Numbered from the stretch's first letter, positions 3,544 to 48,784 are shown. The stretch: 64,000 nucleotides of DNA from Candidatus Latescibacterota bacterium (GCA_965242865.1 CBDETK010000013.1:3904001-3968000); one strand, 5' to 3'. Notes: generated from the letters alone by a model not told the origin. Numbers and translations: made by a program.

Positions 3544-4447
3544 GGGACCTCTCCTTTGGCGAGCAATCAAATGTCCGCGTCAGAAATTTATCCATCGCTG
3601 GAAAGACGGAGTAAAACTTGTCAATCGCAGGAGCGTCCGCCGGGACTGGCAACTCTATCATTTCCGCTCGATCCAGCAGAGACAGGAGTCGCTCAGCGCT
3701 TTGTCGCGGATGTATTTCATCGTCACCCGGCACAAGCATAACCGGGAACGAAATCGAGCGTATATCCTCTTCAGTCAGCCCCGCGGGCCAACTCATCGAC
3801 AAGAGGAATTCACCCCAGCGACGAGTTGTTTCGGCAAACAACTGCGGGTCTAGCGCTAAAACGCGCGCTCGATTGCTTGGATTTCGATAGATCGTTTGTG
3901 CCAACCAAGTGCCTCGTTCAGAGGGTTGCCCCTGCAACTCACCAACCCACGACTCTGTTGACGCATCAATCGCGGCCTGCATCCCCCCACGTTCCGCTAC
4001 TTCTGCGAGACTAAAGCAATGCTTATATACACTGGGTCTAATCAAGGCGGTATCGTCGGTCGGTGGAGAGAGTAGAATGAGCGATTTTACCGCTGCTGGG
4101 TATCGATGCGCCATCCAAAGCGACAAACTGCTACCGGCCGACGCGCCAGCAAAACAAGCGGGTCCCACCCCCAAGTTTCGCAGGAGTGCATAAAGATCCT
4201 CTACGTCTGTCGTCATGTAGTTTGGACTATCCGATAGGGCGACATCAGACGCTCCAAATCCATTGCGTCGATCCCAAATCAGCACGGAGTATTGACGAGA
4301 AAAATGACCCGCCACCAAGTAACTCCATTCGTTGCGGCCAAAGCGACCCCCTTCCGTCCACACCAGCAGCGGTCCTTTACCAAAGACTTCATATACAATG
4401 GACGCACCATTCACAGTCATTGTGGGCATTGATTGTAGGCTGATCAC
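3530..4447 (-). CDS. Alpha/beta fold hydrolase
   Basis: WDRRN.G.S, nucleophile elbow GASAG, D...HP near the C-terminus. Confidence 0.8.
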   Translation of the reverse strand: MISLQSMPTMTVNGASIVYEVFGKGPLLVWTEGGRFGRNEWSYLVAGHFSRQYSVLIWDRRNGFGASDVALSDSPNYMTTDVEDLYALLRNLGVGPACFAGASAGSSLSLWMAHRYPAAVKSLILLSPPTDDTALIRPSVYKHCFSLAEVAERGGMQAAIDASTESWVGELQGQPSERGTWLAQTIYRNPSNRARVLALDPQLFAETTRRWGEFLLSMSWPAGLTEEDIRSISFPVMLVPGDDEIHPRQSAERLLSLLDRAEMIELPVPADAPAIDKFYSVFPAMDKFLTRTFDCSPKERSRVDR

Positions 4448-6322: not shown

Positions 6323-8731
6323 TTACCGCAGCAACAACATGCGGCGGGTTATGACAAAGGAGGAGCCTTCCAGACGGTAGATATAGACACCACTGGCCGC
6401 CTCTTGGCCCCTCTCGTCCTTACCGTCCCAAGCGAGTACGTGCGCCCCGGCCGCAAGATGGCCATCGGTCAGCACACGCACGATCTGGCCGGCTAGGTTG
6501 TAGATAACCAGACGTGTAGGACCGGCCATGTTGGCGGGGATTTGGAAGGAAATTACCGTGGAGGCATTGAAGGGGTTGGGGGCGTTCTGCTGCAAGAAGG
6601 GGCGGGCGGCCTCGGTGCGCAATCGGTACGCTTGTCCCTCGATCACCACCACCATATCCAGACCCAACCCAACAAAAGGAGCCAATGCGTCCGGGCCTAG
6701 AGCGTCGGAGCCGACCTCAACGATGTTCATGCCCAACTGGAACGCTATATCGACCCATAGCGCGTCCTCGCGGTAGAAAGACCGACCGAGCCAAGTCGCC
6801 ATTTCAAATTCGTCCTCCACCGCAGTAGAAACGAACAAATCGCCCACGGCCGAGTCTTCGGTCCCCTCGGGCAGAGGCAAGGGCACTGACACGGTCTCTA
6901 AGCCATCCTCGTTGCGAATGTGGCGGTCAATGGCGACAAAGGAGGTGTACTCGGTTAGCAGGTTGTAAGCCAAGCCTAGCTGCGTGATTTGGGGGCGCAG
7001 GTTGTCGCTGTAACTGGCTTGTTCATCGTCGCTCAGTTGGTCAATGCGGTGGCGTGCCCACAAATAGCGCAGGGCCCTGTTGGTAGGCTTGGCTTGGAAG
7101 GCGGATACATCGAATTGGGCGTTGTACACTTGGTCGCCAGTGCGGCCTCCCAACAGCACCGTGCCTGCGGCCGCGCCGCGCCACTTGCCAAAAACGACGA
7201 TCGGCCGATCGGCCAGCATATCGGGGATGAAGGCCGGTTCCACTTCGTAAGCATCAAAGCCGGCAAAGCCGGCCTCCACTTGGGTGAGGATAGGGGTGCT
7301 GATATAGGTCTGGAAACGAGCGGCCTCGTCGGGGGCCAGTCCTTCTTCAATAACCACAAAAGGCTCGCCTTGGCCGGCCCGGGCGAGGCCCTCAATGAGG
7401 AAGCGGTTGACCGATGAGCCAATGCCAAAGGCAAATAGACTGGCTTGGCCCAAACGCTGGCGCACTAGCTGAAAGGCGGCTGCTTCAAAGCCGACTTTAC
7501 CATCGGTGATCACCGCGATGATACGGGCATAGCCCTCCCCGGCCAAAGGCAGGTTGAAAGCACTGCGGAGCCCACGGAGCAGTTCGGTGCCGCCGCCGCC
7601 CTGTTGACCGTCAATGAGGGCCCAAGCTCGGTCAATATGTTCTTGAGTGGCCGGCAGCGAGCGTTGTTCGCTCAAAACGGCGGCCGCGCCGGCGAATAGG
7701 ACGATGTTGAAGCGGTCTTCGGGACGCAACTGGCCGAGCAGGTTTTTCATCAGACCTTTTGATACGGTGAGGGGGAAGCCCCTCATGGAGCCGGATATGT
7801 CGATTACAAAGATGTATTCGCGCGGTGGGATCTGGCTCGGAACTGGGCGGGCGGGCGGCTGGGCCATGAGCAGAAAGAAATTCTCCTCTTCGCCTTCGTA
7901 CAACAGCAAGCCCGACTCGACCTGTTGACCGGCTAGCTGGTAGCGCAAAATAAAATCGCGGTTGCCGCCAAAACCGTCCGCCGGGTCGAGGGTCAGGCGC
8001 AATTCATCCGGGGCGTCCTGCTCGACGATCACTGCGTGGCTGGGACAATCGTACGCTTGGATGGACAGCCCGGCGGCCAGACACATCTCGATCGCATAGG
8101 TGTAGTTGGGATCTTCGCCCTCGTGCAAATAGGGAATGCGATCGGCGCCGCCTGGGGCCAGAATTTCGTTGACAGCCTCGGGGGAATAGCGCGGACCGAC
8201 CACGGTGGGCAGGACGAATTCGTACTGTTTTTCCGTCGGCACCAATAATTCCGTATAGGACAGGCGCACGGCAATGGAGTCGCCCGGCAGGATATTGGCC
8301 ACGTTCATTCTGAAGACGTTGGGGCGCTCCTGTTCGAGAAGGGAAGCGGTCTGGCCCTGCTCGCGCGCCTCTTCGTATTCCCGACGGGCCTGCTCGCGCT
8401 CGCGGATTTCGGCGGTAATTTCGCGGTCGCCGGTGCGCATCACCATGCCGTACACCGCGGCCCGGGTCGAGGCCGGGAATAGGTACACGGCTTCGAGCGG
8501 GCGAGTGCCTTCGTTGCGATACACCTGCTCGATGGTCACGTCGGCGATGACCCCGGCAATGTGGACTTGGGCAGCCACTGACTTGAGCGGCAGTTGGTCC
8601 ACCGACGGATCATCGGTATCGACGAAGAAGAAAGGAGCTAGGGTCTTGTCGGCTGCGAATGGGGCTTGTTGGGCCGAGGCAGCTACGGTTCCCAGCAGAA
8701 AGACCAATGCAGTGAATCTATGTACGTTCAT
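6323..8731 (-). CDS. Secreted VIT + von Willebrand A domain protein with C-terminal FlgD-Ig-like domain
   Basis: Signal peptide; VIT (LEAVYLFP, ASLLEQERPNVF); MIDAS DISGSM and ITDG; tail QNAPNPFN...WDGKDERG..AASGVYIYRL. Confidence 0.88.
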   Translation of the reverse strand: MNVHRFTALVFLLGTVAASAQQAPFAADKTLAPFFFVDTDDPSVDQLPLKSVAAQVHIAGVIADVTIEQVYRNEGTRPLEAVYLFPASTRAAVYGMVMRTGDREITAEIREREQARREYEEAREQGQTASLLEQERPNVFRMNVANILPGDSIAVRLSYTELLVPTEKQYEFVLPTVVGPRYSPEAVNEILAPGGADRIPYLHEGEDPNYTYAIEMCLAAGLSIQAYDCPSHAVIVEQDAPDELRLTLDPADGFGGNRDFILRYQLAGQQVESGLLLYEGEEENFFLLMAQPPARPVPSQIPPREYIFVIDISGSMRGFPLTVSKGLMKNLLGQLRPEDRFNIVLFAGAAAVLSEQRSLPATQEHIDRAWALIDGQQGGGGTELLRGLRSAFNLPLAGEGYARIIAVITDGKVGFEAAAFQLVRQRLGQASLFAFGIGSSVNRFLIEGLARAGQGEPFVVIEEGLAPDEAARFQTYISTPILTQVEAGFAGFDAYEVEPAFIPDMLADRPIVVFGKWRGAAAGTVLLGGRTGDQVYNAQFDVSAFQAKPTNRALRYLWARHRIDQLSDDEQASYSDNLRPQITQLGLAYNLLTEYTSFVAIDRHIRNEDGLETVSVPLPLPEGTEDSAVGDLFVSTAVEDEFEMATWLGRSFYREDALWVDIAFQLGMNIVEVGSDALGPDALAPFVGLGLDMVVVIEGQAYRLRTEAARPFLQQNAPNPFNASTVISFQIPANMAGPTRLVIYNLAGQIVRVLTDGHLAAGAHVLAWDGKDERGQEAASGVYIYRLEGSSFVITRRMLLLR

Positions 8732-8785
8732 TAGTTATACCTCTCTGGAGTGAGCAGTGCTCAAGGCAGCGCACCGCTTGGCGGC

Positions 8786-9193
8786 TCATCTGTTGTGCCG
8801 CTCGCCATAAGGAACTTCGCACGCCGCATCGGCGCATTCGACCCGGCCGAACCGATGCCGATTGCGTGCGACGAGGGCGTAGCCGGCGCGAAAGAGTTGC
8901 TTCAGCCCCGGAATGCGGTACACCCCGGCGAACCAATGCCACGGCGGAAGCCGGCGATAAATCTGGTACACGGCATCCGCCCCAACATCAACCTGCCCGT
9001 CGGCTTGGATGAGGCGCAGGCCGGTGTTAAAGTCGGAATGGGCGAGGACCGGGAACCGCTCTTCAATGCCGGTCGTTTGGCGCGGCAGGTACTCGAAGCG
9101 GCCGGTGCGGTCAAAGCGGCGAATGCGGCCGACGCTCCACAGGCAGAAGCGGCATTCGCCGTCGTACACGATTACGGGACGAGATTCGCTCAT
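8786..9193 (-). CDS. DCC1-like thiol-disulfide oxidoreductase (DUF393)
   Basis: YDGECRFC (DxxCxxC) and YALVARNRHR motifs; ATG at 9193. Confidence 0.88.
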   Translation of the reverse strand: MSESRPVIVYDGECRFCLWSVGRIRRFDRTGRFEYLPRQTTGIEERFPVLAHSDFNTGLRLIQADGQVDVGADAVYQIYRRLPPWHWFAGVYRIPGLKQLFRAGYALVARNRHRFGRVECADAACEVPYGERHNR

Positions 9194-9256
9194 TTTAAGA
9201 TGCCCTCTGCATTGCAAGTATGACGATTATACCCTTATTACCCGCCACCCGCCACC

Positions 9257-10027
9257 TCAGCACCGCCGCCGCCGGATCATGCGCAGCACCCAATAGGCCC
9301 CCAAGGCCCCGAGCAGGTGCTTGCAAGTATGGCCGCTGATCAATCCTCCGGCCGCATAGAGGGCTTGGTCAAACACCTCGGCGGCTTTCGCGAGCAGATA
9401 AAACAGGCTGGCGACGTAGATATGGGACCCATGCGTGTATGGCGACGGCAGCAGGCGAACCATGAGGGGCACGAATAGAATCGGGTAGGCTTGGGCGACG
9501 ATGTAATACCGGAGGTCTCCGGCCCCGGCCCGCTCGGTATAGTACCAGTACAACACGCTGAAAAGGCCAAAGGCGATCAACGGCAGCAAGGTAATGATGC
9601 CTGCGCGCCGATCGAGACGCTCGGCGATTGCCGTAGCGAGAAACGCCATAAACGCAATGCTCATCGGCAGGCGATCCCACAGGAGCGTTTCATTGCTGGG
9701 CGCGAGGTGATAGTAGGTGGAGCCGAGGCCGACCAGTGCCACCGCGAGGAAGAGGATCTGATAGGCCAGCGAATCGACCGGACGCACAAACGCCTGCTGC
9801 GCGGGATCGGCGGCGAGGCGAAACACGACGCGGAACCCCCACAGCCCGACCAACAGAAAGGGCAGGTTGGAGATCACGTTCAGGCAATGGGGAATGCCCA
9901 GCAGGGTGCGCTGATCGGCGAACTGGTGATAGGCGGGGTCTTGCGGAATGGGTGCTTGCAGGAAGATGACCGCCCAGAAGACGACCGTCAGGTAAGCAAT
10001 CAGCCGGAGGCGGTGATCGCGCTTCAT
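9257..10027 (-). CDS. Ceramidase-domain (alkaline phytoceramidase-like) membrane protein
   Basis: PIPQDPAYHQFADQR, SNLPF, GSTYYH, WDRLPM, SGHTCKH; multiple transmembrane helices. Confidence 0.85.
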   Translation of the reverse strand: MKRDHRLRLIAYLTVVFWAVIFLQAPIPQDPAYHQFADQRTLLGIPHCLNVISNLPFLLVGLWGFRVVFRLAADPAQQAFVRPVDSLAYQILFLAVALVGLGSTYYHLAPSNETLLWDRLPMSIAFMAFLATAIAERLDRRAGIITLLPLIAFGLFSVLYWYYTERAGAGDLRYYIVAQAYPILFVPLMVRLLPSPYTHGSHIYVASLFYLLAKAAEVFDQALYAAGGLISGHTCKHLLGALGAYWVLRMIRRRRC

Positions 10028-10048
10028 TGAGGCTCTAACTTTCCTCGT

Positions 10049-10195
10049 TCAGGCGACGCGATAACGCTCAACCACGTCCATATCCACCGTCTGGACGCGA
10101 CAGAGCGTGATGTCGTAGATCTTGGGATAGTAGCGGGCGATCGCTGGGATCGGGGGAATCTCGACTTCGCACAGCTCTACTTGGGTGATTTTCAC
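10049..10195 (-). pseudogene. Internally deleted mandelate racemase/enolase-family gene remnant (48 aa)
   Basis: RBS GAGGAGGT, GTG start, translation MKITQVELCEVEIPPIPAIARYYPKIYDITLCRVQT-VDMDVVERYRVA*: an enolase-type N-terminus joined to an enolase-type C-terminus. Confidence 0.65.
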
Positions 10196-10322
10196 AGGGG
10201 ACCTCCTCGGCCATAAGGTTGCCGTTGCGCGTGGTTTGTCAAAGGACTAGAATGATACCAAATTGCCGGGTAATCACAAAGCGTTTCGTCGAAGCCGTCC
10301 CTTTGCGAAGAATGGAGAATTT

Positions 10323-11135
10323 ATGCGACTCAAACTAGCGTGTGCTGATTTCACCTTTCCCATCTTGCCGCACGAGCAAGTGCTGCAACTCATCGCCATG
10401 CTGGGGCTGAAGGGCGTGGATATTGGGCTTTTCGAGGATCGCTCGCACTTGCGGCCTTCCACTGAGTTCAAAAACGTCCAACGCTCCGGGCGTGTCTTGG
10501 GGCAGAAGCTGGCGGACAACGGCCTAGTGGCCGCCGACCTGTTCCTGCAACTGGCCCTCGAATACGAGTCTCACGCGGTCAACCACCCTCAGCCCGAGCG
10601 CCGCGACCATGCGCGCGATGCCTTCCTCAAGGTGCTCGACTACGCGGCCGAGTGCAGCGGCAAGCACGTCACCGGCCTGCCCGGCGCTTTCTTCGCGAGC
10701 GAGCCAGAGCCTGATTCTACGGCCCGGGCGGCCGAGGAGCTGGCGTGGCGAGTGGAGCAGGCGCAGGCGCACGACATCGTCTTCGCCATAGAGCCGCACA
10801 TCGGTTCGCTCGCCAACACCCCCGACCGCGCCATCGCGCTGGTACAAGCCGTCCCGGGGCTGACCCTGACGCTCGACTACGGGCACTTCGTCCCGCGCGG
10901 CTTTGCGGCCGCCGAGGTCGAGCCGCTGCTCCAGCACGCCACTCACTTCCACGTGCGCGGCGTCAACAGCCACAGCGGCTCGGCCTCCTTGGCCGACAAC
11001 GCGCTCGACTGGCAGCGCGTTCTCCACGTCATGGAGCAAACGGGATACAGCGGCTGGCTCGAGTTGGAGTTCGGGGGCAACAACCTCACCGACACGGTCG
11101 CGTTCCGCGACTACTTGCGGACGCTCATGACCTAA
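10323..11135 (+). CDS. Sugar phosphate isomerase/epimerase (xylose isomerase-like TIM barrel)
   Basis: IEPHIGS, LTLDYGH, HFHVRG, GYSGWLELE metal-binding motifs; ATG 10323 after GGAG. Confidence 0.85.
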   Translation: MRLKLACADFTFPILPHEQVLQLIAMLGLKGVDIGLFEDRSHLRPSTEFKNVQRSGRVLGQKLADNGLVAADLFLQLALEYESHAVNHPQPERRDHARDAFLKVLDYAAECSGKHVTGLPGAFFASEPEPDSTARAAEELAWRVEQAQAHDIVFAIEPHIGSLANTPDRAIALVQAVPGLTLTLDYGHFVPRGFAAAEVEPLLQHATHFHVRGVNSHSGSASLADNALDWQRVLHVMEQTGYSGWLELEFGGNNLTDTVAFRDYLRTLMT

Positions 11136-11241
11136 CCGCGCGGTGCTCATGGCGAGGAACTCTTTGGCGAGTCAAGACGTCTTTTGACAAACCGGCTTCG
11201 CCTCGACCACACCACAACCTTTCCCATCCACGGAGTATATC

Positions 11242-11694
11242 ATGCTGACTCAATGCGTCCTCACGCTCACAGCCTTGGCCTTCTTATTCACCCCAGCCCC
11301 CTCCTTCGCCGGCCCCGTCCCGATAGAAGGCGAAGGCGACCCGGCCTTGTACGTGCTCAAAGTCCACGCCGATTGGTGCGGCTCCTGCAAGGCCCTAGCG
11401 CCCATTCTCAAAGAAGTCCAAGCCGAGGTGGCTGACCGGCCTGTCCTCTTCGTCGAATTGGACGTCACCGATTCAACGTTGACATCCCAAGCCCGTCTGC
11501 TCGCCGCGGCCCTCGACGTAGAAGACCACTTCAAGGCCAACAACAAAACCGGCCTCGTCCTGCTCATCAACGCGCAAGACCACACCCTGCTGGAAACGGT
11601 GACCAAGCAAAACTCCGCCACTGAGATCGTCGGCAAAATCGAAACGCACCTCGCCGCCCAAGCCGAGCAGAACGGGGCTGCCACTAGCCCCTAA
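11242..11694 (+). CDS. Exported thioredoxin-family protein
   Basis: Signal peptide and HADWCGSCK (WCxxC). Confidence 0.8.
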   Translation: MLTQCVLTLTALAFLFTPAPSFAGPVPIEGEGDPALYVLKVHADWCGSCKALAPILKEVQAEVADRPVLFVELDVTDSTLTSQARLLAAALDVEDHFKANNKTGLVLLINAQDHTLLETVTKQNSATEIVGKIETHLAAQAEQNGAATSP

Positions 11695-37597: not shown

Positions 37598-38605
37598 ATG
37601 GCTATTAGCCGAGAGAACCTGAAAGAACGGTTGGCCGCCTTGCCGCGGTTGCCGCTAGCGGCCCTGCCCACGCCCTTGGAAGCGTTGACGCGCCTCAGCA
37701 CCCACCTAGGCGGCCTCCAGCTTTGGGTCAAGCGCGACGATTTGACCGGCTTGGCCTTTGGCGGCAACAAGATCCGCGAGTTTGAATACCAGATCGCCCA
37801 AGCCGTAGAGCAGGGCTGCGACGTGCTGGTACACTCGGCGGCCGCCCAGTCGAATCAATCGCGGCAGACAGCGGCCGTGGCCGCAAAATTGGGGCTGTCT
37901 GCGGTGATCGTCGGCCGCGACGACGCCCACGCCCAACCGCAGGGGAACCTGCTGTTGACCCACCTCTTTGGCGCGGAGGTGGACCTGCCCGCACCCGAGG
38001 CGCAGGCGCGGGCTGTGGCCGCAAAACTGGCCGCGCTGACAGCGGCTGGCCATCGCCCCTTCCACACCAGCTCGGACGCGCGCATCTTCCGCAGTGTCGC
38101 GTACGTCGATGGGGCGTTGGAGCTCTTGGCCCAATGCGAGCGACAGGGGGTTGAGCCGGCGGCGATTTACCTGTGCTCTGGGGCGCATACCCACGTGGGG
38201 TTGGTGGTGGCGTTTAAGGCGCTGGGCTTGGATATGCGGGTGGTGGGCGTCAGTCCCTCGCCGCGCGACGATCGGCAGGCGGCGAGGGAGCATCTCGCGC
38301 TGGGGCGGGAATGCGCCCAAGTCCTAGGGCTAGACCTTTCGCTGAAGGTGGAGGATTTTGAAAGTTATGCCGCGTTTGCCGGTCCGGCTTACGGCGTCGT
38401 AACCGCCGAGAGTCGCCAAGCACTGCACTTAGTGGCGCAGCAGGAAGGGCTGGTGCTCGATCCGTCTTATACCAGCAAGGCCATGGCCGGGCTGTTGGCG
38501 CACGTGCGCGTCGGTTGGTGGCGTCCCGATCAGACCCTCATCTTTCTCCACACCGGCGGCACCCCCGCGCTTTTTGCTTACGCCAAGGATCTCGGCTACC
38601 TTTGA
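37598..38605 (+). CDS. D-cysteine desulfhydrase / ACC deaminase family PLP enzyme
   Basis: PTPLE, VKRDDLTG..FGGNKIR, QSN, EG.VLDPSYTSKA, FLHTGG.P.LF. Confidence 0.9.
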   Translation: MAISRENLKERLAALPRLPLAALPTPLEALTRLSTHLGGLQLWVKRDDLTGLAFGGNKIREFEYQIAQAVEQGCDVLVHSAAAQSNQSRQTAAVAAKLGLSAVIVGRDDAHAQPQGNLLLTHLFGAEVDLPAPEAQARAVAAKLAALTAAGHRPFHTSSDARIFRSVAYVDGALELLAQCERQGVEPAAIYLCSGAHTHVGLVVAFKALGLDMRVVGVSPSPRDDRQAAREHLALGRECAQVLGLDLSLKVEDFESYAAFAGPAYGVVTAESRQALHLVAQQEGLVLDPSYTSKAMAGLLAHVRVGWWRPDQTLIFLHTGGTPALFAYAKDLGYL

Positions 38606-38653
38606 ACTCTTGCTCGCCGGCATTGAACTCAACCTCAATTACAAGGACTAAAT

Positions 38654-40855
38654 ATGACTACAACATCAAACGCCAACGGCGACAATCTGCTTTTCAATAT
38701 CAAGGCAGACCGAGACAAAGAGGAAGCCGATAAAAGGGCGAACGAGGCAATCCAAGAATTGCTCAGCCTGATCGATAAGGACCGCAACGTCGGCGACCTC
38801 ATCAGTATGGACTACGACACCGCGGAGGTGCTGATTCACGACAGACTACGACAGGATGTCGGCGGAGTGCCGCATGGGTGTCTGTTGATCGCCACTAGGA
38901 TAAGGCTAGACGCCGATCCCCCCGACCTCAACGATACTCAAACGTCCCTAATTTTGTTGCGCGCCCTGAAGGCAAGTCCCTTGCCCAACGATATAGAGAT
39001 GAAGCATGCTCGCTTGGAAGCGGGCCAGAGAGCAGCCCACACTTCCGACAATTGGGACGAGGGCGGCAAAACAGATCAGTTTACTTTAGACCAGATGCGC
39101 TATGCCGGGGCGCACTGCCGCATCCTAGGTACTTTTCGCATGAATCTCGATGAGGAAACCAAAAAGTGGAATCTTGAATACGGCGGCGACATAGATAATT
39201 TTTACGCCGGCCAAGGAATGAAGGTTTACAAACTCACTGGAGCCGCATTAGAGCGCATCGCCAATTACACCCTGTGGAAAGGAGCGAGCTCTGAGCCTGT
39301 GGAGATCGGCCAGATTCGCTATGCTGCCTCCATACGCAACTCTGAAACCGTGCCTGTCCGTATGGTCGCCGAGGATATTCTGGCTCAGCGAACTGCCCTG
39401 TTCGGCATGACCCGAACCGGCAAGTCCAACACCACTAAAACCATTGCCAGTGCTGTTTTTCGCCTGCGAACCATGAGAGATAGCCAACGGGTTGGCCAGT
39501 TAATTTTCGATCCTAATGGCGAGTATGCCAATGAAAACCCGCAAGACCAAGGTTGCCTCAAAAACATTGGCAATATCGCTCTTGGTTTAACCGAGGATGT
39601 AATCACCTACGGACTCAACCCGCATCCCAATGATGAGGATCGCAAAATCACCAAGTTCAATTTCTTCGGCAATCTCATACCAAACGATGCCAACAAGGCA
39701 GAACTGGACGAGCAGTTACAGAGCCTTTACCAAGGCAAAGAAATTATCAACGAGGTGCTGCGAGAGGAAGGGGCAGGATATATACAGGCTTTTATACAGG
39801 CTGACGTTGCCGCTCCTGAAAATATAGACGAACGCGGACAATCTGTGCGCTATCGGCGTTCCCTATTCGTGTACCGGGCGATCCTTGCCAAAGCTGGTTT
39901 CAGTTCCGCATGGCAAGGAGTACCGACCAAAGGGCTATTCAGCAAGGATATACGCGACAAGATGCGTAAAGACCCAACCCTTGCTCCATACGTTGACGTT
40001 GAGACTTCGGACAGTGGTAAACCGGACAGTGATAAACCTAAACCTAACACTTTGGACAGTGATAAACCTATGACTTGGGATCGCGCCGGACAGTTCTGCG
40101 AGAGTTTCGCCAAATGGGTCAATACAGACCCATTTAAAGAATTTGACAGAGATTATGCTCGCCGAAAGAATGGACGCCGTTGGAGTGACGATCGTCTGCT
40201 TGGATTGCTCAGCATTTTTGAAAATACTAGGGGGTTGCGCCTAATACAGAAGGCCCAGCAGTGGCACGATGTTGATTACAGCACCGATTATGCTAACGAT
40301 ATCGTGAAATACGTGCGCGAGGGTAAGCTCGTAATCGTGGACCAAGCACTAGGCAGTCCGCAGCTAAACGAACAAGCGTCTAAACGCATTATGAGACAGA
40401 TTTTTGGTGCACAGCAGGAAGCCTTCGTCAACCCGGAGCTCGATGAAAGCACTGGCGAATACAAGAAACCCGCTCCGGTCATCATTTACGTAGAAGAAGC
40501 CCATACCTTGCTACCCAAAGGGAACGAAACCGACACGACAAACATCTGGGCGAGAATCGCAAAAGAGGGTGCCAAATTTAACATCGGCTTGGTCTATTCC
40601 ACACAGGAACCGTCCACAATCCAGACCAACATCTTAAAAAACACCGAAAACTGGTTCATCGCACATCTCAACAATACCGATGAAACCCAACAATTGAGCA
40701 AGTACAACGATTTCGCAGACTTCATTCACAGCATAATCAAAGTGAATGAAACCGGCTTCCTACGAGTCCGTACCTTGTCCAGTCCGTACACCTTGCCAGT
40801 GCAAATCAACAAGTTCACGGCTCCGACGGAGACATCAGATGCCATATCAGAATGA
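38654..40855 (+). CDS. herA: HerA-family (DUF87) DNA translocase ATPase
   Basis: N-terminal HAS-barrel-like region; Walker A GMTRTGKS, IFDPNGEY, Walker B IYVEEAH, RIAKEGAKF, STQEPS. Confidence 0.88.
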   Translation: MTTTSNANGDNLLFNIKADRDKEEADKRANEAIQELLSLIDKDRNVGDLISMDYDTAEVLIHDRLRQDVGGVPHGCLLIATRIRLDADPPDLNDTQTSLILLRALKASPLPNDIEMKHARLEAGQRAAHTSDNWDEGGKTDQFTLDQMRYAGAHCRILGTFRMNLDEETKKWNLEYGGDIDNFYAGQGMKVYKLTGAALERIANYTLWKGASSEPVEIGQIRYAASIRNSETVPVRMVAEDILAQRTALFGMTRTGKSNTTKTIASAVFRLRTMRDSQRVGQLIFDPNGEYANENPQDQGCLKNIGNIALGLTEDVITYGLNPHPNDEDRKITKFNFFGNLIPNDANKAELDEQLQSLYQGKEIINEVLREEGAGYIQAFIQADVAAPENIDERGQSVRYRRSLFVYRAILAKAGFSSAWQGVPTKGLFSKDIRDKMRKDPTLAPYVDVETSDSGKPDSDKPKPNTLDSDKPMTWDRAGQFCESFAKWVNTDPFKEFDRDYARRKNGRRWSDDRLLGLLSIFENTRGLRLIQKAQQWHDVDYSTDYANDIVKYVREGKLVIVDQALGSPQLNEQASKRIMRQIFGAQQEAFVNPELDESTGEYKKPAPVIIYVEEAHTLLPKGNETDTTNIWARIAKEGAKFNIGLVYSTQEPSTIQTNILKNTENWFIAHLNNTDETQQLSKYNDFADFIHSIIKVNETGFLRVRTLSSPYTLPVQINKFTAPTETSDAISE
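40009..40070. repeat. Three imperfect copies of GGACAGTG(G/A)TAAACC inside herA (DSGKP/DSDKP)
   Basis: Copies start at 40009, 40024 and 40054. Confidence 0.8.
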
Positions 40856-42182
40856 ATTTGCCAGAAGCGATTCCCTCTGGCGTCTAATAGAAAGCGAAAG
40901 CGTCCGGGAGTTCCAAGGCATAATCAAACAGAGCGAGGGCCAAGAGCTACACGAACTACCAGCCCGGTTGGAACCACAGCGCGGCATCGGTAGCATAAAG
41001 CGAGTGGTCGCCATTGACGGCTCGACAGTAACCCACAAAGTCAAGAACGGCTATCCGGGCGCTGAGGCAGCCCTATTCAACTTGGCCGCCATAGTCATTA
41101 AGCTACAGGCAATACGCGATGTCTCGCGCAATTACATCCCTAGCCCCAGCGAAATGCGGGATATGGAGCAGTGCGAGACATTGAGTGCCGTATTTCCAGG
41201 CCGTAATATCATAAGGGAAGACGAACCGAACGACTCACCCAAACGGTTCTTCCGGGCGACTATCAGCAAGGAATTGGAGGCACGACTGGACCCGAAACAC
41301 GAGACACTGTTAGAAACATTACGTGCCATAACAACAGACCGATCCGGCGAGATAGACTGCCCACTTGACGACTGTCCGCTTGAGGACCAAAATAAGAAAA
41401 TCACGCTAGAGCAGGGCGATGGCACCTGCAATTGCAGGCGAGGCGAGATCATATACGAGACAGATGCTCTAAGAGCACACGAGCGCTTTGAAGAAAACGG
41501 TTCGAGCGAACAGGCTTTTACCGCTGTCCGTCAAGTGATAGAGCACCTTACTCTAGTGAACATCCTGAGATACTTTGAACGATTCGATAGCCTAGGGGTA
41601 TTCCAAGACACAGCATTTATAATGGACGGTCCTCTAGCTCTGTTCGGTATGCCGGCGTGGCTCAAGCATCACATACAGCGAGAAATTGCCCGCCTACATA
41701 AAAAGGTACAAAGGCATGGCGACCCTGGAATTATCCTGATGGGAATAGAGAAGTCGGGGCAGTTTCTAGATCACCTAGGTGAGTTGGACTATAAAGAAAA
41801 GGAAGGACCTCGGCAGCAGTTGCCTAACTGTACCGCATTAGCACCGGATATAGGATACATCCACAAGCATATCGTGCTACGGCCACCGAACGCCAAGCCA
41901 TATGGAGAAGCGACGTACTACGGGCGTAAGGTGCTGTATAAAAATAAAGCCGGGCAGCACTCAGTAGTAATGACGCCAATAGTGGACGACAAGGGACAAG
42001 ATCTGAATTGTGTCGACGAATCTGCTTATCCTAGAATAGGAGAGGCTCTAGATATTATGGACGAGCTTTCCACCCATCTGTACCGGGACGGCTTCGCACC
42101 GCTAGTGCGGGCACATGCTCATGCTGCCATCCCGCTCAAAACCGGCAGCAGAGTTTTAGAGAGGATATTCAGCGAGCAATGA
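40839..42182 (+). CDS. nurA: NurA-family nuclease (RNase H fold)
   Basis: VVAIDGS, IMDGPL, GIEKSG, YYGRK, PLVRAHAHA; probable start MPYQNEFA overlapping the herA end. Confidence 0.82.
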   Translation: MPYQNEFARSDSLWRLIESESVREFQGIIKQSEGQELHELPARLEPQRGIGSIKRVVAIDGSTVTHKVKNGYPGAEAALFNLAAIVIKLQAIRDVSRNYIPSPSEMRDMEQCETLSAVFPGRNIIREDEPNDSPKRFFRATISKELEARLDPKHETLLETLRAITTDRSGEIDCPLDDCPLEDQNKKITLEQGDGTCNCRRGEIIYETDALRAHERFEENGSSEQAFTAVRQVIEHLTLVNILRYFERFDSLGVFQDTAFIMDGPLALFGMPAWLKHHIQREIARLHKKVQRHGDPGIILMGIEKSGQFLDHLGELDYKEKEGPRQQLPNCTALAPDIGYIHKHIVLRPPNAKPYGEATYYGRKVLYKNKAGQHSVVMTPIVDDKGQDLNCVDESAYPRIGEALDIMDELSTHLYRDGFAPLVRAHAHAAIPLKTGSRVLERIFSEQ

Positions 42183-43327
42183 GACAACAATACGCCAAGC
42201 TGACAGCACCCCATCAACCGAAATATGGCACTGCAGCGAGTCGCTGGGCCGGCATCGGTCCTTATTATGCAATGTTCCCAACCGAGTTTGCTGATGCTGT
42301 TATAAGCAAATATACCCGTCTTGGCGAAACTATCCTCGACCCATTCGCCGGCCGTGGTACTGCCATATTCAGTGCCGCCATTCAGCAGCGTCCAGCCATC
42401 GGTATCGAAATCAGTCCCCTAGGCTACGTGTATGCTAACGCTAAACTCAAACCTGGGGACTACAAAAGAGTAGTACGAAAACTTGAAAAGCTGGGTGAAA
42501 CCGCTCACTTATATCGCTCAGAGGCGAATAACCTCCCACCATTTTTTCACCATTGCTTCGCTCCCGGAGTACTCGAGTTTCTAATCGCCGCCCGCGAAAA
42601 GTTGAAATGGAAACACGGGAGAGATGATCGAACTCTAATGGCCATCATTTTAGTATCACTGCATGGTAAACGGCTCCAGTCCCTGTCCAATCAGATGCGC
42701 CAGAGTACCTCAATGGCTCCCGATTACTGCATCCGCTGGTGGACAGAAAAAAATCTCGCCCCACCAAATATCGACCCAGTCGAGTTTTTCACCAAGCGCA
42801 TTAAATGGCGCTATGCAAAAGGAATACCCCAAACTGAAGATGCCATAGTCCACCTAGGCGACAGTATTAAAAAATTACCTCAGTTAGCCCGATATATCCA
42901 AAAACGCCAACAGTCCCAAATAAAACTCCTCATTACTTCTCCTCCCTATAGTAATGTTACAAATTACTACTACGACCAATGGCTCAGATTATGGCTATTA
43001 GGTGGTCCAGAATATCCCGGCAAACATGGTGATCTATATGGAGGAAAGTTTAGCAACTCCGAACGGTATTATCAATTACTCAACCGAGTCTTCGCTAGAG
43101 CGAAACGTATCCTTGCGAACGATGCTATTATCTACATCAGAACCGATCTCAGAGAGTCAACTCTCCATACCACACGGGCTGTTTTGAAAGAAACGTTCCC
43201 CGAAAAACACATCACCGATGAGATAGAACAACCCCTGAATCCTGCTCGTCAAACTAGACCGTACAGCCGCGGTGGAGCACCAAAAAAAGCCAATTGCGAA
43301 GTGGATATCATCCTAGAACCTCGGTAG
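42179..43327 (+). CDS. Site-specific amino (m4C/m6A) DNA methyltransferase, motif I before motif IV
   Basis: YYAMFP, motif I ILDPFAGRGT, GIEISP, motif IV LITSPPY; ATGA overlap with nurA. Confidence 0.88.
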   Translation: MRQQYAKLTAPHQPKYGTAASRWAGIGPYYAMFPTEFADAVISKYTRLGETILDPFAGRGTAIFSAAIQQRPAIGIEISPLGYVYANAKLKPGDYKRVVRKLEKLGETAHLYRSEANNLPPFFHHCFAPGVLEFLIAAREKLKWKHGRDDRTLMAIILVSLHGKRLQSLSNQMRQSTSMAPDYCIRWWTEKNLAPPNIDPVEFFTKRIKWRYAKGIPQTEDAIVHLGDSIKKLPQLARYIQKRQQSQIKLLITSPPYSNVTNYYYDQWLRLWLLGGPEYPGKHGDLYGGKFSNSERYYQLLNRVFARAKRILANDAIIYIRTDLRESTLHTTRAVLKETFPEKHITDEIEQPLNPARQTRPYSRGGAPKKANCEVDIILEPR

Positions 43328-43362
43328 CTATATGCACTGCCTTCGCATCCCGTGTACACGGG

Positions 43363-43389
43363 GCTGTGGATTACATAGACTATCATTGA
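43363..43389 (+). pseudogene. 3' remnant of HigB toxin
   Basis: GCT GTG GAT TAC ATA GAC TAT CAT TGA = AVDYIDYH*, the characteristic HigB C-terminus, directly upstream of higA. Confidence 0.65.
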
Positions 43390-43403
43390 TAGGGAGTGGA
43401 AAT

Positions 43404-43703
43404 ATGGCAATGCACGATCCTCCGCATCCGGGTGGAATCGTTCGACGGCAGTGTCTTCAGCCGCTTGGTCTGTCCGTGACACAAGCGGCGGTAGGGCTGG
43501 GCGTATCTCGTCAGATGCTGTCCGATCTGGTAAACGAGCGGACGGGCATCTCGACCGAGATGGCCATTCGCCTATCTAAGGCGTTCGGCTCTACGCCGGA
43601 GACTTGGCTCGGAATGCAAATGGCCTATGATCTCTGGCAAGCCCGCGAACGCGCCGAGCAGATTGAGAGCGAGGTATTTGAGATGCCGGCACCGGGCCAC
43701 TAA
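43404..43703 (+). CDS. higA: HigA-family addiction module antitoxin
   Basis: MHDPPHPG, LGVSRQ.LS.LVN, ISTEMAIRLSKAFGSTPETWL.MQ.AYDL; RBS GGGAG. Confidence 0.92.
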   Translation: MAMHDPPHPGGIVRRQCLQPLGLSVTQAAVGLGVSRQMLSDLVNERTGISTEMAIRLSKAFGSTPETWLGMQMAYDLWQARERAEQIESEVFEMPAPGH

Positions 43704-43728
43704 GTGGCCGGAAGCATTCGCACCGCGA

Positions 43729-43775
43729 GTTCGTGAAATGGGGCCTCTCTCAAACGGAGACCCCATTTTGCGAAC
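43729..43775. other. Long intergenic stem-loop
   Basis: GTTCGTGAAATGGGG pairs with CCCCATTTTGCGAAC (15 bp, two G-U pairs) plus an inner CTCT/GGAG stem. Confidence 0.6.
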
Positions 43776-43898
43776 AGACAGCACACAGCGTATCATTTTC
43801 AGCTTACTAGATGCCCACAATCCCGGACGCATCGGGAACACCAGCTAGGTGTCGCGTCCTTTAACAGCGTCAGCACCCGACAGACTCTCTAACGAACC

Positions 43899-44699
43899 AT
43901 GACCTTCGCCCTGCCGTTTATCACTGCCCTCGTCTCCGGGCTTTACACGTGCCTGTGGGGCGCGTTCAAAGACGCGCCTTACGAGGGATTCAAACCCAAG
44001 ACCTTTCCGCGCAGCATCTACTTCCACCTCGCAATTTTTTTGCCGTTGTATTTCGTCCCGTATTTCAGCGCACAATTCCAGCATCTTGGTCTCGTGCAAA
44101 CATTCTTCCTGATCATGGGCCTAGAGCGCTTTCTCGCCGAAATCTACAAGGGCTTCTTCCGCACGGAAGACCAGCAGAAGTACTTCGTTCCCTCGCGCAT
44201 TACCTTCTTTGGCCGCCCGGTCACCAGCGACTTCCTCCGCTATAGTGCGGGCGGTCTAATCGTCGCCATTGTCTTTGCCTTCTTGCTCGTCGCCGTGCCC
44301 GTCAAGAGCTTCTGGGCCTATCTGGCGACCGGGTATTGCACCGGGCTGCTCGTGGCCTTGGGCGGTGCTTATAAGGACGCGCCCTTCGAGGGATTCAAGT
44401 GGCTCAAATTCCAGCGCTCTGGGGTCGTCTTGGCCGCCCTGAGTCCGCTGTTTTACTTTCTCGGCAATCCCGAACACCCGGTCGGCTTGGGTTTTCTCAT
44501 TTACATGAACGGCGGGCTAGAGCGATTCACCGTCGAGTACTACAAGACTTACATCCAGCGCAATATGTCCGGGAAATTCCAACCCAACCTGCCCAGAATT
44601 CAGCGAGAATTGGACACCCGCGAAAAGTTCCACTACGCGGCCTTGGCGATCATCGCCGGGCTGGCCGCGCTCTACGCCTATGAACGCGGCGCACTATGA
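43899..44699 (+). CDS. Hypothetical polytopic membrane protein with internal duplication
   Basis: Repeated GA(F/Y)KDAP(Y/F)EGFK...F.RS and GLERF..E.YK motifs; several transmembrane helices. Confidence 0.7.
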   Translation: MTFALPFITALVSGLYTCLWGAFKDAPYEGFKPKTFPRSIYFHLAIFLPLYFVPYFSAQFQHLGLVQTFFLIMGLERFLAEIYKGFFRTEDQQKYFVPSRITFFGRPVTSDFLRYSAGGLIVAIVFAFLLVAVPVKSFWAYLATGYCTGLLVALGGAYKDAPFEGFKWLKFQRSGVVLAALSPLFYFLGNPEHPVGLGFLIYMNGGLERFTVEYYKTYIQRNMSGKFQPNLPRIQRELDTREKFHYAALAIIAGLAALYAYERGAL

Positions 44700-46167
44700 C
44701 GCAGTGGTCATTGGCTCCGGGTTCGGCGGCTCGCTGGTGGCCCACGCGCTGGTGCAATCCGGGCTAAAGACCGCGCTGCTAGAGCGGGGCCAATGGGCCA
44801 AGCGCGACGACGCAGACTGGGATCAGCGCACCATCCTGCTGCAAAAACGCTACGGCGCGGCCTCGCCCCTTTTGGTCAAGCAGTACGGCCGTCGCACCTT
44901 CCAGCGCGTCTATCCCAACGAAGTCGTCGGTGGCAACTCCGTCTTTTACGGCGGGGCGTCGCTGCGGTTGCGGCCGGCGGATTTTGCCCGCTGGCCCTTT
45001 TCCTATGCCGAGCTAGCCCCTTATTACGCCCGCGCCGAGCAGCTTCTCGGGGTACACGGAGAGGTGGGGACCGACCCCTACCAACCCCCGGGGTTGGTGG
45101 CCTATCCGCGCCGCGCTGTTGAGCTGAGTACACCGGCCCAGCGCATTTACCAAGCGGGGACGGACTTGGGGCTGCGGCCGTTCAAAATTCCGCTGGCGAT
45201 CAATTTTTCCGACCGCACCCGCCCTCTCTGCCTGCGCTGCATCACCTGCGATGGCTTCCCCTGCAAGGTGGAGGCTAAAAACGACCTGGCTTCCACTGTG
45301 CTGGCTGCGGCTGTGGCCGCCGGGCTGGAGATCGTCGTCGGCGCGGTGGCGCGGCGGTTGGTGCAGCGGGGGGGGCGCGTCGAGCAAGTCGAATACGTGG
45401 ACAGCACCTCCCGACAGGTCCACGCGCTCTCGGCCGACTTGGTGGTCTTGGCCGCTGGGGCACTCAACAGCCCGGCCCTGATGCTGCGCTCGGGATTCGA
45501 CCACCCCCTGATTGGGCGCTTTCTCATGCGCCATTGCAATGGGGTTGCCTGCTGCATCTTCCCCTTTCGCACCAACCCGCAACAGGTCTTCCACAAACAA
45601 CTCTGCTTTTCCGATTTCTACGAAGACCGGCGCGCGGAATTTGGCACGGCCGTGGGCGTCATCCAAGACATCTACACCCCGGCGCCCGCCATCATCCGGC
45701 ACCACACGCCTTGGGGCCTCAAAACCCTCGCCGGGCTGCTGGCCAGCCGCATGCAGAGTTTGCTCTGCATTGCCGAGGACGACCCGCGCCGCGAAAACCG
45801 CATGTCGTTGGCTGACGAGCGGGACATTTTCGGCTTGGAACTGGTACAAATAGAACACGCGTACAGCGACGCCGACTGCGGTCGCCGCGACCTTTTGCTG
45901 GCCAAGGCAGAGGCCGTATTGCGCCAAGCGGGCGGCCTGCTGCGCTACCGCTACCGGATCGATTCCTTCTCGCACGCCGTAGGCACCCTGCGTTGCGCCA
46001 CTGCGCCCGAGGAAGGCGTCCTCAATGCGGATTGTCGCTATTGGGGCAGCGACAACCTCTACGTATCCGACGGCAGCTTCATGCCGTCTTCGGGCGGAGT
46101 AAATCCAAGTTTGACGATTGCGGCCAATGCCCTGCGGGTCGCCGAGCGGATATTGGAGAAGCCATGA
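44680..46167 (+). CDS. GMC-family FAD oxidoreductase
   Basis: VIGSGFGG, LERG, VGGNS, LAAGAL.SP.L.LRS, HAVGT, DGSFMP, NPSLTIAANALR. Confidence 0.92.
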   Translation: MNAAHYDAVVIGSGFGGSLVAHALVQSGLKTALLERGQWAKRDDADWDQRTILLQKRYGAASPLLVKQYGRRTFQRVYPNEVVGGNSVFYGGASLRLRPADFARWPFSYAELAPYYARAEQLLGVHGEVGTDPYQPPGLVAYPRRAVELSTPAQRIYQAGTDLGLRPFKIPLAINFSDRTRPLCLRCITCDGFPCKVEAKNDLASTVLAAAVAAGLEIVVGAVARRLVQRGGRVEQVEYVDSTSRQVHALSADLVVLAAGALNSPALMLRSGFDHPLIGRFLMRHCNGVACCIFPFRTNPQQVFHKQLCFSDFYEDRRAEFGTAVGVIQDIYTPAPAIIRHHTPWGLKTLAGLLASRMQSLLCIAEDDPRRENRMSLADERDIFGLELVQIEHAYSDADCGRRDLLLAKAEAVLRQAGGLLRYRYRIDSFSHAVGTLRCATAPEEGVLNADCRYWGSDNLYVSDGSFMPSSGGVNPSLTIAANALRVAERILEKP

Positions 46168-47212: not shown

Positions 47213-48784
47213 TCACATCCCCCAAACATCCACCTCCACCCCACTGTCAGCTACCCGGCGGCAGTGAAACACTTTGTCGGCCCAACGCCGCCCTTCGCGT
47301 CGGTCGAAAATCACCAGATGACCCGCCTCGGCCCCGCAGCGATCCACGTATTCCGCGGTCTGCTTCAACCCAGCGACGATCGTCTGCTCCAAGCTCTGAT
47401 GCAGCACCTTGCACTCGACCACGAACCGGCGCGTCTGCTCTCCCTGCGGCCATACAATGAGCAAATCCGTCCGCATCCGACCCAAGCCGTATTCACGCTC
47501 GATGCGACTGCCGCTGTTGACGATGCGCTGCAAAAAGGCTTGCAGCAGCAACTGCGGCCCGGCTTCCTTGTACTCGAATCGCTCCACCCAGTGCTCGGAG
47601 TGCTCGCGGAAGAACGCTTGGAATGCCGACAACAGCTTGTCCAAGTCTAGGCCGCCAGCCGCATCCACATACCAAGCCGGGTCTTGGGCTAACGTCGCTT
47701 GGGTGGTGTAGATCAGCTCGCGTGGAATGACCTCTCGATATATGGGATTGGCAATACGCGCCGGGTTGTCTGCGCTGAGCAGGCCCAAATCGCGGACATA
47801 CATCAAGTCGTCGGAGGGCATGGAGTGCGCTTGGCTGCCACTCAGCAAAGGCTCGACGACGCGCCGGACGCGCTCTTCTTGCAGCTTATCGGCCAACTGG
47901 TCGAGATGGGTTTCGCGCCGCAGGATGAGTTGCTCTTGCGCGGCGAGGATGGCCTCAGCCGCGACCGGGTGCTGGCGATCTTGGGCGACGCCGTAAAAGC
48001 AGGCTTCGTCGGCCAGCGCGTTGACCAGCCACGGTTGCCCTTGGGTCTGCGTCCAGACCGTCTCCACTGCCTCGGCGGTGAACGCTTGGCCGGTCTCTTC
48101 GGTGTGCTGACCGAGCAAGGTGGACACCTCCTCGCGGGAAAAGTCGCCCAGACGCAGCGACCGCGCCTTGATGTTGAACGCACTGCCGCCGGCGATGATG
48201 GCTTTTTCGACCGTCGATTGAATGCGGTAATCGCGCACGTCGCGCACCCCGCACAGCACCACGCTCTGGGGAAACGCTCCGGGCCGGCGCACATAGCCCG
48301 CCCGCAACTGACGCAGCACCGACAGCAGCGAATCCCCGATCAGGGAATCGATTTCGTCGATCAGCAGCACCAGCGGTTTGGTTGCCGCCGCCGACCAGCG
48401 CGTCAGGGCCTCGCGCAACGCACCCGCGCCGAATTTGGCGAAGATGTCCGACCAAGTATCGGTCAGAAACTCGTCGTTGAGCGTCGAACGCGCCCAAGAC
48501 GCCAGTTCGCCCAAGATGACCTGCGTCGCCCGTTCCACGTCTTCGCGCAGGGGTTGTGCGCCCTCCACGTTGACGTACACGCAGCCGTAGTTCCCTTCGG
48601 CGTTGAGCAGGTCGCGCAGGGCCAGCAGAGCCGATGTCTTGCCCGTCTGGCGCGGCGCGTGCAGGACGAAGTAGCGTTTGTCGCGAATGAGCCGGCGCAC
48701 CTCGGCAAGGTTCAGCCGCTCCAACGGCGGGATGCAGTAGTGATCGTCGGCGACGACCGGACCGCTCGTATTGAAAAAACGCAT
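47213..48784 (-). CDS. AAA-like ATPase with C-terminal PD-(D/E)XK-like domain
   Basis: FFNTSGP, HAPRQTGKTS, LLIDEID, GGSAFNIK, GQPWLVN, RE...GRMRTDL...VVECK. Confidence 0.88.
   Translation of the reverse strand: MRFFNTSGPVVADDHYCIPPLERLNLAEVRRLIRDKRYFVLHAPRQTGKTSALLALRDLLNAEGNYGCVYVNVEGAQPLREDVERATQVILGELASWARSTLNDEFLTDTWSDIFAKFGAGALREALTRWSAAATKPLVLLIDEIDSLIGDSLLSVLRQLRAGYVRRPGAFPQSVVLCGVRDVRDYRIQSTVEKAIIAGGSAFNIKARSLRLGDFSREEVSTLLGQHTEETGQAFTAEAVETVWTQTQGQPWLVNALADEACFYGVAQDRQHPVAAEAILAAQEQLILRRETHLDQLADKLQEERVRRVVEPLLSGSQAHSMPSDDLMYVRDLGLLSADNPARIANPIYREVIPRELIYTTQATLAQDPAWYVDAAGGLDLDKLLSAFQAFFREHSEHWVERFEYKEAGPQLLLQAFLQRIVNSGSRIEREYGLGRMRTDLLIVWPQGEQTRRFVVECKVLHQSLEQTIVAGLKQTAEYVDRCGAEAGHLVIFDRREGRRWADKVFHCRRVADSGVEVDVWGM

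Follow-up and report, generated by a model that had tools for sequence, protein, structure and literature searches.

A cassette of three genes, encoding a HerA ATPase, a NurA-like nuclease and a DNA amino-methyltransferase (MTase), was found in a 64,000-nucleotide stretch of DNA from a Candidatus Latescibacterota bacterium (GCA_965242865.1 CBDETK010000013.1:3904001-3968000; hereafter the window, by which this whole stretch is meant). The trio is probably a single, horizontally mobile module resembling a restriction-modification (R-M) system, and as such would be the base-methylation counterpart of TdpABC, which relies on DNA phosphorothioate (PT). The sequence-only reading had proposed that the methylase marks self DNA and that HerA-NurA degrades DNA lacking the mark. 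The conserved synteny, the patchy distribution and the defence or mobile neighbours of the cassette speak for this proposal; since TdpAB is a HerA-NurA-type machine coupled to PT, the logic of joining a modification to HerA-NurA was already established for that mark.

The three genes (Table 1) occupy 4.7 kb in all, lie on one strand and overlap. By direct reading, herA and the nuclease gene, nurA, share 17 nt (nurA ATG at 40839, herA stop codon at 40853-40855), nurA and the MTase gene share an ATGA, and there are zero internal stops in any of the three plus-strand open reading frames (ORFs). The longest possible ORF of the nuclease gene begins at 40746; the ATG at 40839 was chosen, with a GGAGA lying 5-6 nt upstream. 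These overlaps suggest translational coupling. The GC content is 0.48-0.54 across approximately 38.5-43.5 kb, compared with 0.60-0.66 in the flanks. The coordinates, frames, both overlaps and the lower-GC block given by the sequence-only reading were all confirmed, and every motif that it quoted was found (GMTRTGKS, EEAH, IDGS, DGPL, GIEKSG, DPFAGRGT and TSPPY), as were the gene for a pyridoxal phosphate (PLP)-dependent enzyme and the broken higBA module that it had placed on either side. It had also remarked on the lack of mre11/rad50 and of a classical restriction endonuclease (REase), and the ORFs scanned between 28.6 and 55 kb of the window include none of them. A scan for promoters and terminators remained at background (7 against 5.2 expected and 5 against 6.8 expected). 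Among the sequencing runs listed with matching DNA, some are labelled sponge or marine metagenome; none of the runs listed is of RNA.

The kinship of the nuclease with NurA and TdpB is visible only in its predicted fold. The Pfam NurA model (PF09376) gave a sub-threshold match (E=0.039; 13.9 bits against a gathering cut-off of 21), the PADLOC (PADLOC-DB 2.0) and NCBIfam models gave zero matches and name no known system for this protein, and a profile of the nuclease family, when compared with the sequences of the Protein Data Bank (PDB), returned only chance matches to antibodies (E 0.25-0.54). An AlphaFold (AF2) model built from 23 homologues (pLDDT 74, pTM 0.76) had TdpB as its best Foldseek match (2.6e-6). 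In VIA-align the same model was matched to TdpB (8wet_G) with a Z of 17.1 over 301 residues, to the other NurA structures (D. radiodurans NurA, S. solfataricus NurA and TM1739) with a Z of 11.1-11.6, and to Argonaute PIWI domains with a Z of about 8, while PF09376 is carried by 24-43% of the members of its look-alike clusters in the Atlas. Structure prediction thus bears out the NurA fold first read from short motifs, as the Pfam and PADLOC matches bear out the HerA ATPase and the amino-MTase. Residues D60, S62, D209, D263, G264, K305 and H312 are candidate catalytic residues, being shared by every aligned row (72-73 of 73 sequences; a single row is gapped at D60 and S62). The nuclease is approximately 90 aa longer than TdpB and has a Cys-rich insert (C174, C179, C197 and C199), the first three cysteines of which are kept in 70-72 of the 73 sequences. 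Homologues number at least 535 (245-783 aa) in 90% clusters, and HMMER detected 722 family members at E<=0.001 among 1.84 billion representative proteins (50% identity). Among the matches listed, none of 120 nuclease homologues carries a precomputed Pfam domain.

The identity of the HerA motor is secure. The protein was assigned to its family by Pfam DUF87 (3e-10) and PADLOC HerA (1e-20); the NCBIfam HerA models match at 1e-16, yet far under their cut-off. Walker A is GMTRTGKS (residues 250-257) and Walker B is ..YVEEAH (residues ~610-617). TdpA (8wet_A) is the closest solved structure by sequence (2.7e-15), and the six best Foldseek matches of the AF2 model (pLDDT 79) are all TdpA chains (E 1e-25 to 9e-24, TMt 0.69-0.72), followed by Thermococcus and Sulfolobus HerA and by the SIR2-HerA and DUF4297-HerA proteins. 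The window HerA is about 150 aa longer than TdpA, and a mostly helical stretch of the model, residues ~345-555, is the candidate location of this extra length.

The identity of the MTase is likewise secure from its motifs and profile matches, Pfam N6_N4_Mtase being matched in two stretches (6e-15) and PADLOC MTase_II at 5e-21. Motif I (DPFAGRGT, residues 54-61) precedes motif IV (TSPPY, residues 253-257), a circular permutation of the order in the beta-class Pfam model, and in profile matches to the TTHA0409-like methylase 2zie (1.3e-14), CcrM, N4-cytosine MTases and M.PvuII the two halves are swapped. The motifs GPYYAMFP, DPFxGRGT and TSPPY are invariant family-wide, and the core residues of motifs I (FxGxG) and IV ((S/D/N)PP(Y/F)) are invariant in 25 MTase sequences. 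SPPY is often found in N4-cytosine enzymes.

The partnership of the three genes is widely conserved. A genome scan yielded 78 loci, with titles that span many bacterial phyla and one Asgard archaeon, and in 71 of these tblastn placed HerA, nuclease and MTase genes in the same order and on the same strand. The seven that differ comprise two in which HerA is cut by the contig end and five without the cassette-type MTase, four of which (L072, L076, L077 and L078) have an MTase of the D12/Dam class (PF02086) within approximately 2 kb. The D12 gene lies directly upstream of herA in L076 and L077, directly downstream and on the opposite strand in L072, and 1.8 kb off in L078. A DNA methylase is therefore a near-constant partner across phyla, despite changes of methylase family or gene order. 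No fourth conserved gene was found within 2.5 kb, the largest flank family being present at 4 of the 78 loci. Among 41 related genomes, five encode a full-length nuclease, and these same five, and no others, gave strong full-length matches to the MTase profile (at least 472 bits).

Several variant clusters were observed. In a Dehalococcoidia metagenome-assembled genome (MAG; L011, 4751-8329) HerA and the NurA-like protein form a single ORF of 1192 aa, which could reflect a genuine gene fusion, loss of a stop codon or an error of assembly. A methylase-free variant is found on a plasmid of Tolypothrix sp. PCC 7910 (L091; NZ_CP050441.1, 52067-58456), where a helix-turn-helix (HTH) regulator is followed by DUF87/HerA, a NurA with 25% identity to the window nuclease, a small hypothetical gene and a gene for an 816-aa exonuclease-domain protein. 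A second type of cluster (L095, G012:C1:111000-126000, minus strand, ~7200-11250) encodes a 380-aa protein with no Pfam match and no match to the NurA-family hidden Markov model, a 700-aa HerA (DUF87 3e-20) and a relative of the MTase (30% identity) whose frame is apparently interrupted; an ORF with a Tse2-like ADP-ribosyltransferase domain lies near it.

The close association with a methylase could also indicate an arrangement like that of Type I or Type III R-M systems, in which the MTase would double as the sequence reader, binding the unmethylated site and recruiting or licensing HerA-NurA, so that specificity would reside in the MTase. In many loci nurA and the MTase gene share the 4-nt ATGA overlap, the family-specific invariant motifs GPYYAMFP, LSNQ, WW and WLRLW of the MTase could be surfaces for interaction or DNA reading, and no sensing of a base methyl group by a ring motor would be needed. 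We nevertheless consider such an arrangement unlikely. The divergent branch uses the unrelated D12 MTase, at times encoded on the other strand or some 2 kb off, and such a replacement suits a protective methylase that stands on its own better than a fixed subunit. Moreover, the identities of the MTase are less coupled to those of HerA and NurA (r=0.76) than the latter two are to each other (r=0.95, 49 loci). Prediction of a complex of nuclease and MTase gave a score of 0.00 in two runs without controls, which carries no weight for or against binding.

The cassette is patchily distributed. The nuclease gene was found in its own genome and in only one of the 24 other genomes of the genus, and presence in 2 of 25 marks it as accessory there, not core; in a second genus it was found in 4 of 12 genomes, at only 35-42% identity. 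The 3' end of the PLP-enzyme gene is the point at which the cassette inserts in this genus. In the one other carrier, G022 (locus L007, titled Candidatus Latescibacterota), an insert of 5.66 kb containing higB, higA, herA, nurA and the MTase gene is bounded by 132-nt direct repeats of the 3' end of the PLP-enzyme gene (3960-4091 and 9622-9753, 95% identity). Three genomes, G019, G001 and G012, have empty sites in which the PLP-enzyme gene is directly joined to its normal downstream DNA, and the sequence at that junction is what follows the second repeat in G022. A decayed remnant, consisting of three herA fragments of 89-148 bp directly after the PLP-enzyme gene, was present in G002. A decayed copy was also observed in the sister genus (L096, G034:C73, 5014-8173), with an internally gapped HerA, a nuclease that breaks off after residue ~387 and an MTase reduced to its last ~70 residues.

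At the right edge of the window cassette only the end of higB remains. Because G022 has an intact 92-aa higB, ending ..AVDVDYIDYH immediately before higA, the label of a broken higBA was correct; blastn homology to G022 begins at window 43365, and the two higA genes are 88% identical in DNA, the G022 copy lying upstream of herA. The order herA-nurA-MTase-'higB-higA in the window, as against higB-higA-herA-nurA-MTase in G022, looks like a circular permutation of the insert. The right flank (43704-43889 rightwards) maps to a different chromosomal position from the left flank in 5 of 5 same-genus genomes, and the cassette thus lies at a rearrangement breakpoint in this genome.

The spread of the family points to horizontal transfer as well. 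The closest relatives of the nuclease (74-76% identity) are from MAGs titled Caldilineaceae, Chloroflexota and Binatia, compared with 39-55% identity in other MAGs titled Latescibacterota. Two Vibrio prophages (2 records in INPHARED) carry a distant version between integrase and excisionase, together with a D12 MTase that is 48% identical to the copy in L078; the depositors' labels mention only a 'Type II MTase' and a HerA domain. A Halorarius plasmid has the order DUF87, hypothetical protein, DNA methyltransferase, and a Deferribacter megaplasmid has, in order, an MTase, a DUF87 gene interrupted by an IS200/605 element, and NurA. Neighbours of distant versions include Tn7-like tnsCDE, Wadjet jetCD, and VWA-PP2C-kinase with an OLD nuclease. 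In Clostridium malenominatum (L078, 39-11035) the HerA-NurA pair comes directly after Tn7-like TniB/TnsC, TnsD and TnsE and therefore looks like transposon cargo; beyond it lie an AAA_15/AAA_21 ATPase and then the D12-type methylase. A search of viral contigs with two peptide patterns gave 26 pattern matches, of which zero were confirmed. When the flanks of every third locus were surveyed (17 loci and 133 flank ORFs, L073 being dropped for its size), R-M or defence Pfam domains were found within 5 kb at 8 of the 17 and transposase or integrase domains at 4, in keeping with the expectation that homologues sit in defence islands. The cassette is thus accessory and mobile.

These properties would also suit a selfish addiction or maintenance module that stabilises mainly itself or its carrier by post-segregational killing: once the methylase was lost, HerA-NurA would attack the chromosome, and phage defence would be at most a by-product. 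The cassette travels with mobile DNA, it adjoins the higBA addiction module in this genus, it is found on plasmids, on prophage and with a Tn7-like element, and the MTase is never lost alone. All three genes are intact at 52 of the 78 loci; the restriction side is broken and the MTase intact at 12 (HerA alone at 10, the nuclease alone at 1 and both at 1), HerA and MTase are both broken at 3, and the MTase is broken with HerA and nuclease both intact at 0, the remaining loci being contig-end cases or members of the D12 branch. This pattern agrees weakly with what a toxic nuclease paired with a protective methylase would predict; gene length alone gives P ~0.045 for zero MTase-only breaks among 11 single-gene breaks. 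The same facts suit defence systems generally, however, and Pycsar, Wadjet and type ISP/IIG R-M genes are found among the neighbours, as they would be in a defence island. In addition, a restriction side that is broken at 15 of 78 loci is readily lost. We regard a mainly selfish module as quite unlikely. Ordinary HerA-NurA resection of double-strand break ends, with a methylase that is adjacent by chance or has an unrelated epigenetic role, is highly improbable: the folds are indeed those of archaeal and Deinococcus repair proteins, and 'DNA double-strand break repair nuclease NurA' is the RefSeq name of some distant relatives, but carriage by so few genomes of the genus, the low GC, the direct-repeat flanks and empty sites, the lack of mre11/rad50 nearby, the persistence of the methylase link through family replacement and rearrangement, and carriage by prophage and plasmids all stand against it.

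We infer that an R-M-like module of this kind would work in defence and self-protection as follows. The methylase would mark a motif on host DNA, and a HerA hexamer with a dimer of the NurA-fold nuclease would load on DNA, with free ends of incoming phage or plasmid DNA as the easiest point of entry, and translocate with ATP while degrading it. Methylated self sites would either block loading or stall motor and nuclease, by analogy with the reported action of PT on TdpAB. An et al. (Nat Chem Biol, 2025) are said to have found that hexamers of TdpA and dimers of TdpB move along unmodified DNA and cleave it, and that they are blocked by PT on self DNA. Speculatively, candidate readers of the methyl mark are the ~150 residues by which HerA exceeds TdpA and the nuclease's Cys-rich insert; the MTase itself is an alternative candidate.

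A number of observations weigh against this reading. Nearly all loci are MAGs, and long-read or assembly frameshifts could mimic the gene breaks on which the decay count depends; the asymmetry of that count is in any case weak, since HerA is the longest gene and the loci are interrelated. The Asgard contig (L074, 7.5 kb) shows no methylase, the Tolypothrix plasmid relative has an exonuclease-domain gene instead of one, and G023, G012 and G006 have weaker relatives of the MTase but no NurA. At 7 of the 17 loci sampled for their flanks there were no R-M, defence or mobile-element domains, and the neighbours are mostly ordinary metabolic or housekeeping genes. A hypervariable target-recognition region was looked for across the MTase family and none was found; the region between motifs I and IV is well conserved family-wide, so that the hypervariable recognition domain of diversifying R-M systems is absent and the whole family may share one motif. 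Finally, sensing of a base methyl group by a ring translocase is without explanation, and TdpAB reportedly senses backbone sulfur, which is a different problem.

We also propose, tentatively and as one joint claim that is possible though doubtful as a whole, that these cassettes represent a distinct class of R-M system. In such a class a HerA ring with an RNase H-fold nuclease would load on DNA and degrade it processively unless it met the host mark; the mark would be interchangeable, being supplied by a permuted N4/N6 methylase, by a Dam-like methylase or as phosphorothioate (Tdp); and the motor-nuclease would read base methylation while translocating, by means of clade-specific inserts. To our knowledge, no known R-M enzyme tells self from non-self in that way. 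If the claim were true, TdpAB would be no oddity of thermophiles and phosphorothioate but a member of a widespread family with a swappable modification partner, and methylation-based immunity would have a new restriction architecture of ring translocase and RNase H-fold nuclease. Bacterial 'HerA-NurA' pairs currently annotated as repair genes would find an explanation as well, and a sharp question would arise: how a motor that encircles DNA senses a base methyl group.

The features of the window around the cassette are collected in Table 1. The first ORF of the right flank is hydrophobic, encodes 266 aa and has no Pfam match. A 58-nt direct repeat within the ORF (43936 and 44341, 71% identity) points to a membrane protein with an internal duplication. 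Further along, the window encodes a predicted AAA-ATPase with a C-terminal PD-(D/E)XK nuclease domain (PF09820 and PF08011; 53378-54955, plus strand) and an AAA_22/AAA_35 ATPase (47213-48784, minus strand). Both kinds of ATPase are often found in mobile or defence contexts.

Table 1. Cassette genes and flanking features, in window coordinates
Feature	Coordinates	Strand	Description
PLP-dependent enzyme gene, left flank	37598..38605	+	Pfam PALP PF00291, 8e-39
Low-GC block	38600..43400	.	Coincides with the cassette
herA	38654..40855	+	733 aa, HerA/FtsK-class ATPase-translocase, predicted hexameric
nurA-like (TdpB-like) nuclease gene	40839..42182	+	447 aa, predicted RNase H fold
DNA amino-methyltransferase gene	42179..43327	+	382 aa
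higB remnant	43363..43389	+	Last ~8 codons and stop (..AVDYIDYH); cassette/higBA junction
higA-type HTH antitoxin gene, toxin-less	43405..43703	+	HTH_3 9e-11; GGGAG before ATG 43405
ORF, right flank	43899-44699
GMC oxidoreductase gene, right flank	44680-46167

The trio was compared with known systems, from the more distant to the closest. For MADS (PADLOC mad1-8), which is a multi-gene mad set, only a partial mad8 match was obtained for HerA (7e-14), the nuclease was unmatched, and the cassette has three genes only. Classical ATP-dependent R-M systems (Types I, III and ISP) share with the cassette a methylase that marks self DNA and a translocating nuclease driven by nucleoside triphosphates, both features being predicted here. 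They rely on an SF2 helicase as motor and on a PD-(D/E)XK nuclease, whereas here a HerA ring is paired with a predicted RNase H fold; the ATPase is of the HerA/FtsK class and no SF2 helicase-nuclease subunit of Types I and III is encoded. As for Type II systems, the motifs of an S-adenosylmethionine (SAM)-dependent MTase are present, but a stand-alone REase of classical fold is not, the sole nuclease of the cassette having the RNase H/NurA fold and being coupled to an ATPase.

Other systems also employ HerA. In SIR2-HerA (Nezha) and DUF4297-HerA a HerA protein powers or scaffolds a defence effector, and their fold similarity to the window HerA is appreciable (E ~1e-18 to 1e-16). They lack a modification gene and work through abortive infection. 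The effector here would be a NurA-fold nuclease, and no SIR2 or DUF4297 match to Pfam or PADLOC models was found in the cassette. Membership of the Dnd systems was likewise rejected on the Pfam and PADLOC matches of the cassette proteins. As far as the accessible text of the two sources goes, DndFGH and the 'HerA/FtsK capture' systems recruit HerA/FtsK translocases with nucleases and DNA-modification modules (PMC10853773; BRC systems, PMC12839542), and circularly permuted N4-cytosine methylases are mentioned in conflict systems (NAR 2024, PMC10853773). In contrast to the cassette, the nucleases described in that text are REase- or PglZ-type and the architectures multi-domain and multi-gene; the word NurA has 0 occurrences in the same text of PMC10853773 and PMC12839542.

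Canonical HerA-NurA of Sulfolobus, Thermococcus and Deinococcus shares with the trio both folds, adjacent or overlapping genes and an expected ring motor with a dimeric nuclease. The trio differs from it in that the Pfam NurA match is below the cut-off, that mre11/rad50 are not linked, and that the cassette is accessory and mobile rather than a vertically inherited core module and has a dedicated methylase partner. The closest likeness is to TdpABC of thermophiles (PDB 8wet and 8wfd), described in the accessible part of its source as a third phosphorothioate R-M system, with a single gene, tdpC, making the modification (PMC12914056). The cassette shares its plan of HerA-type ATPase, NurA-fold nuclease and single DNA-modification gene, and among solved structures none matches the two window proteins better than TdpA and TdpB. 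Structural alignments give only 14-17% identity to these, however, the hosts are mesophile-type MAGs of many phyla, and the third gene encodes a SAM-dependent amino-methyltransferase (Dam-like in a side branch) and not the PT-forming TdpC. Because TdpC is replaced, and no other gene is conserved nearby, the trio is not a member of Tdp. The sequence-only reading had known of no characterised system with this exact trio, and a literature search found no description of a HerA, NurA and methyltransferase system, a mention inside the Tdp paper or its supplements being the one that cannot be excluded. That view stands for the methylase-coupled form, which appears to be undescribed, though TdpAB, the closest characterised relative and itself of HerA-NurA type, was already known.

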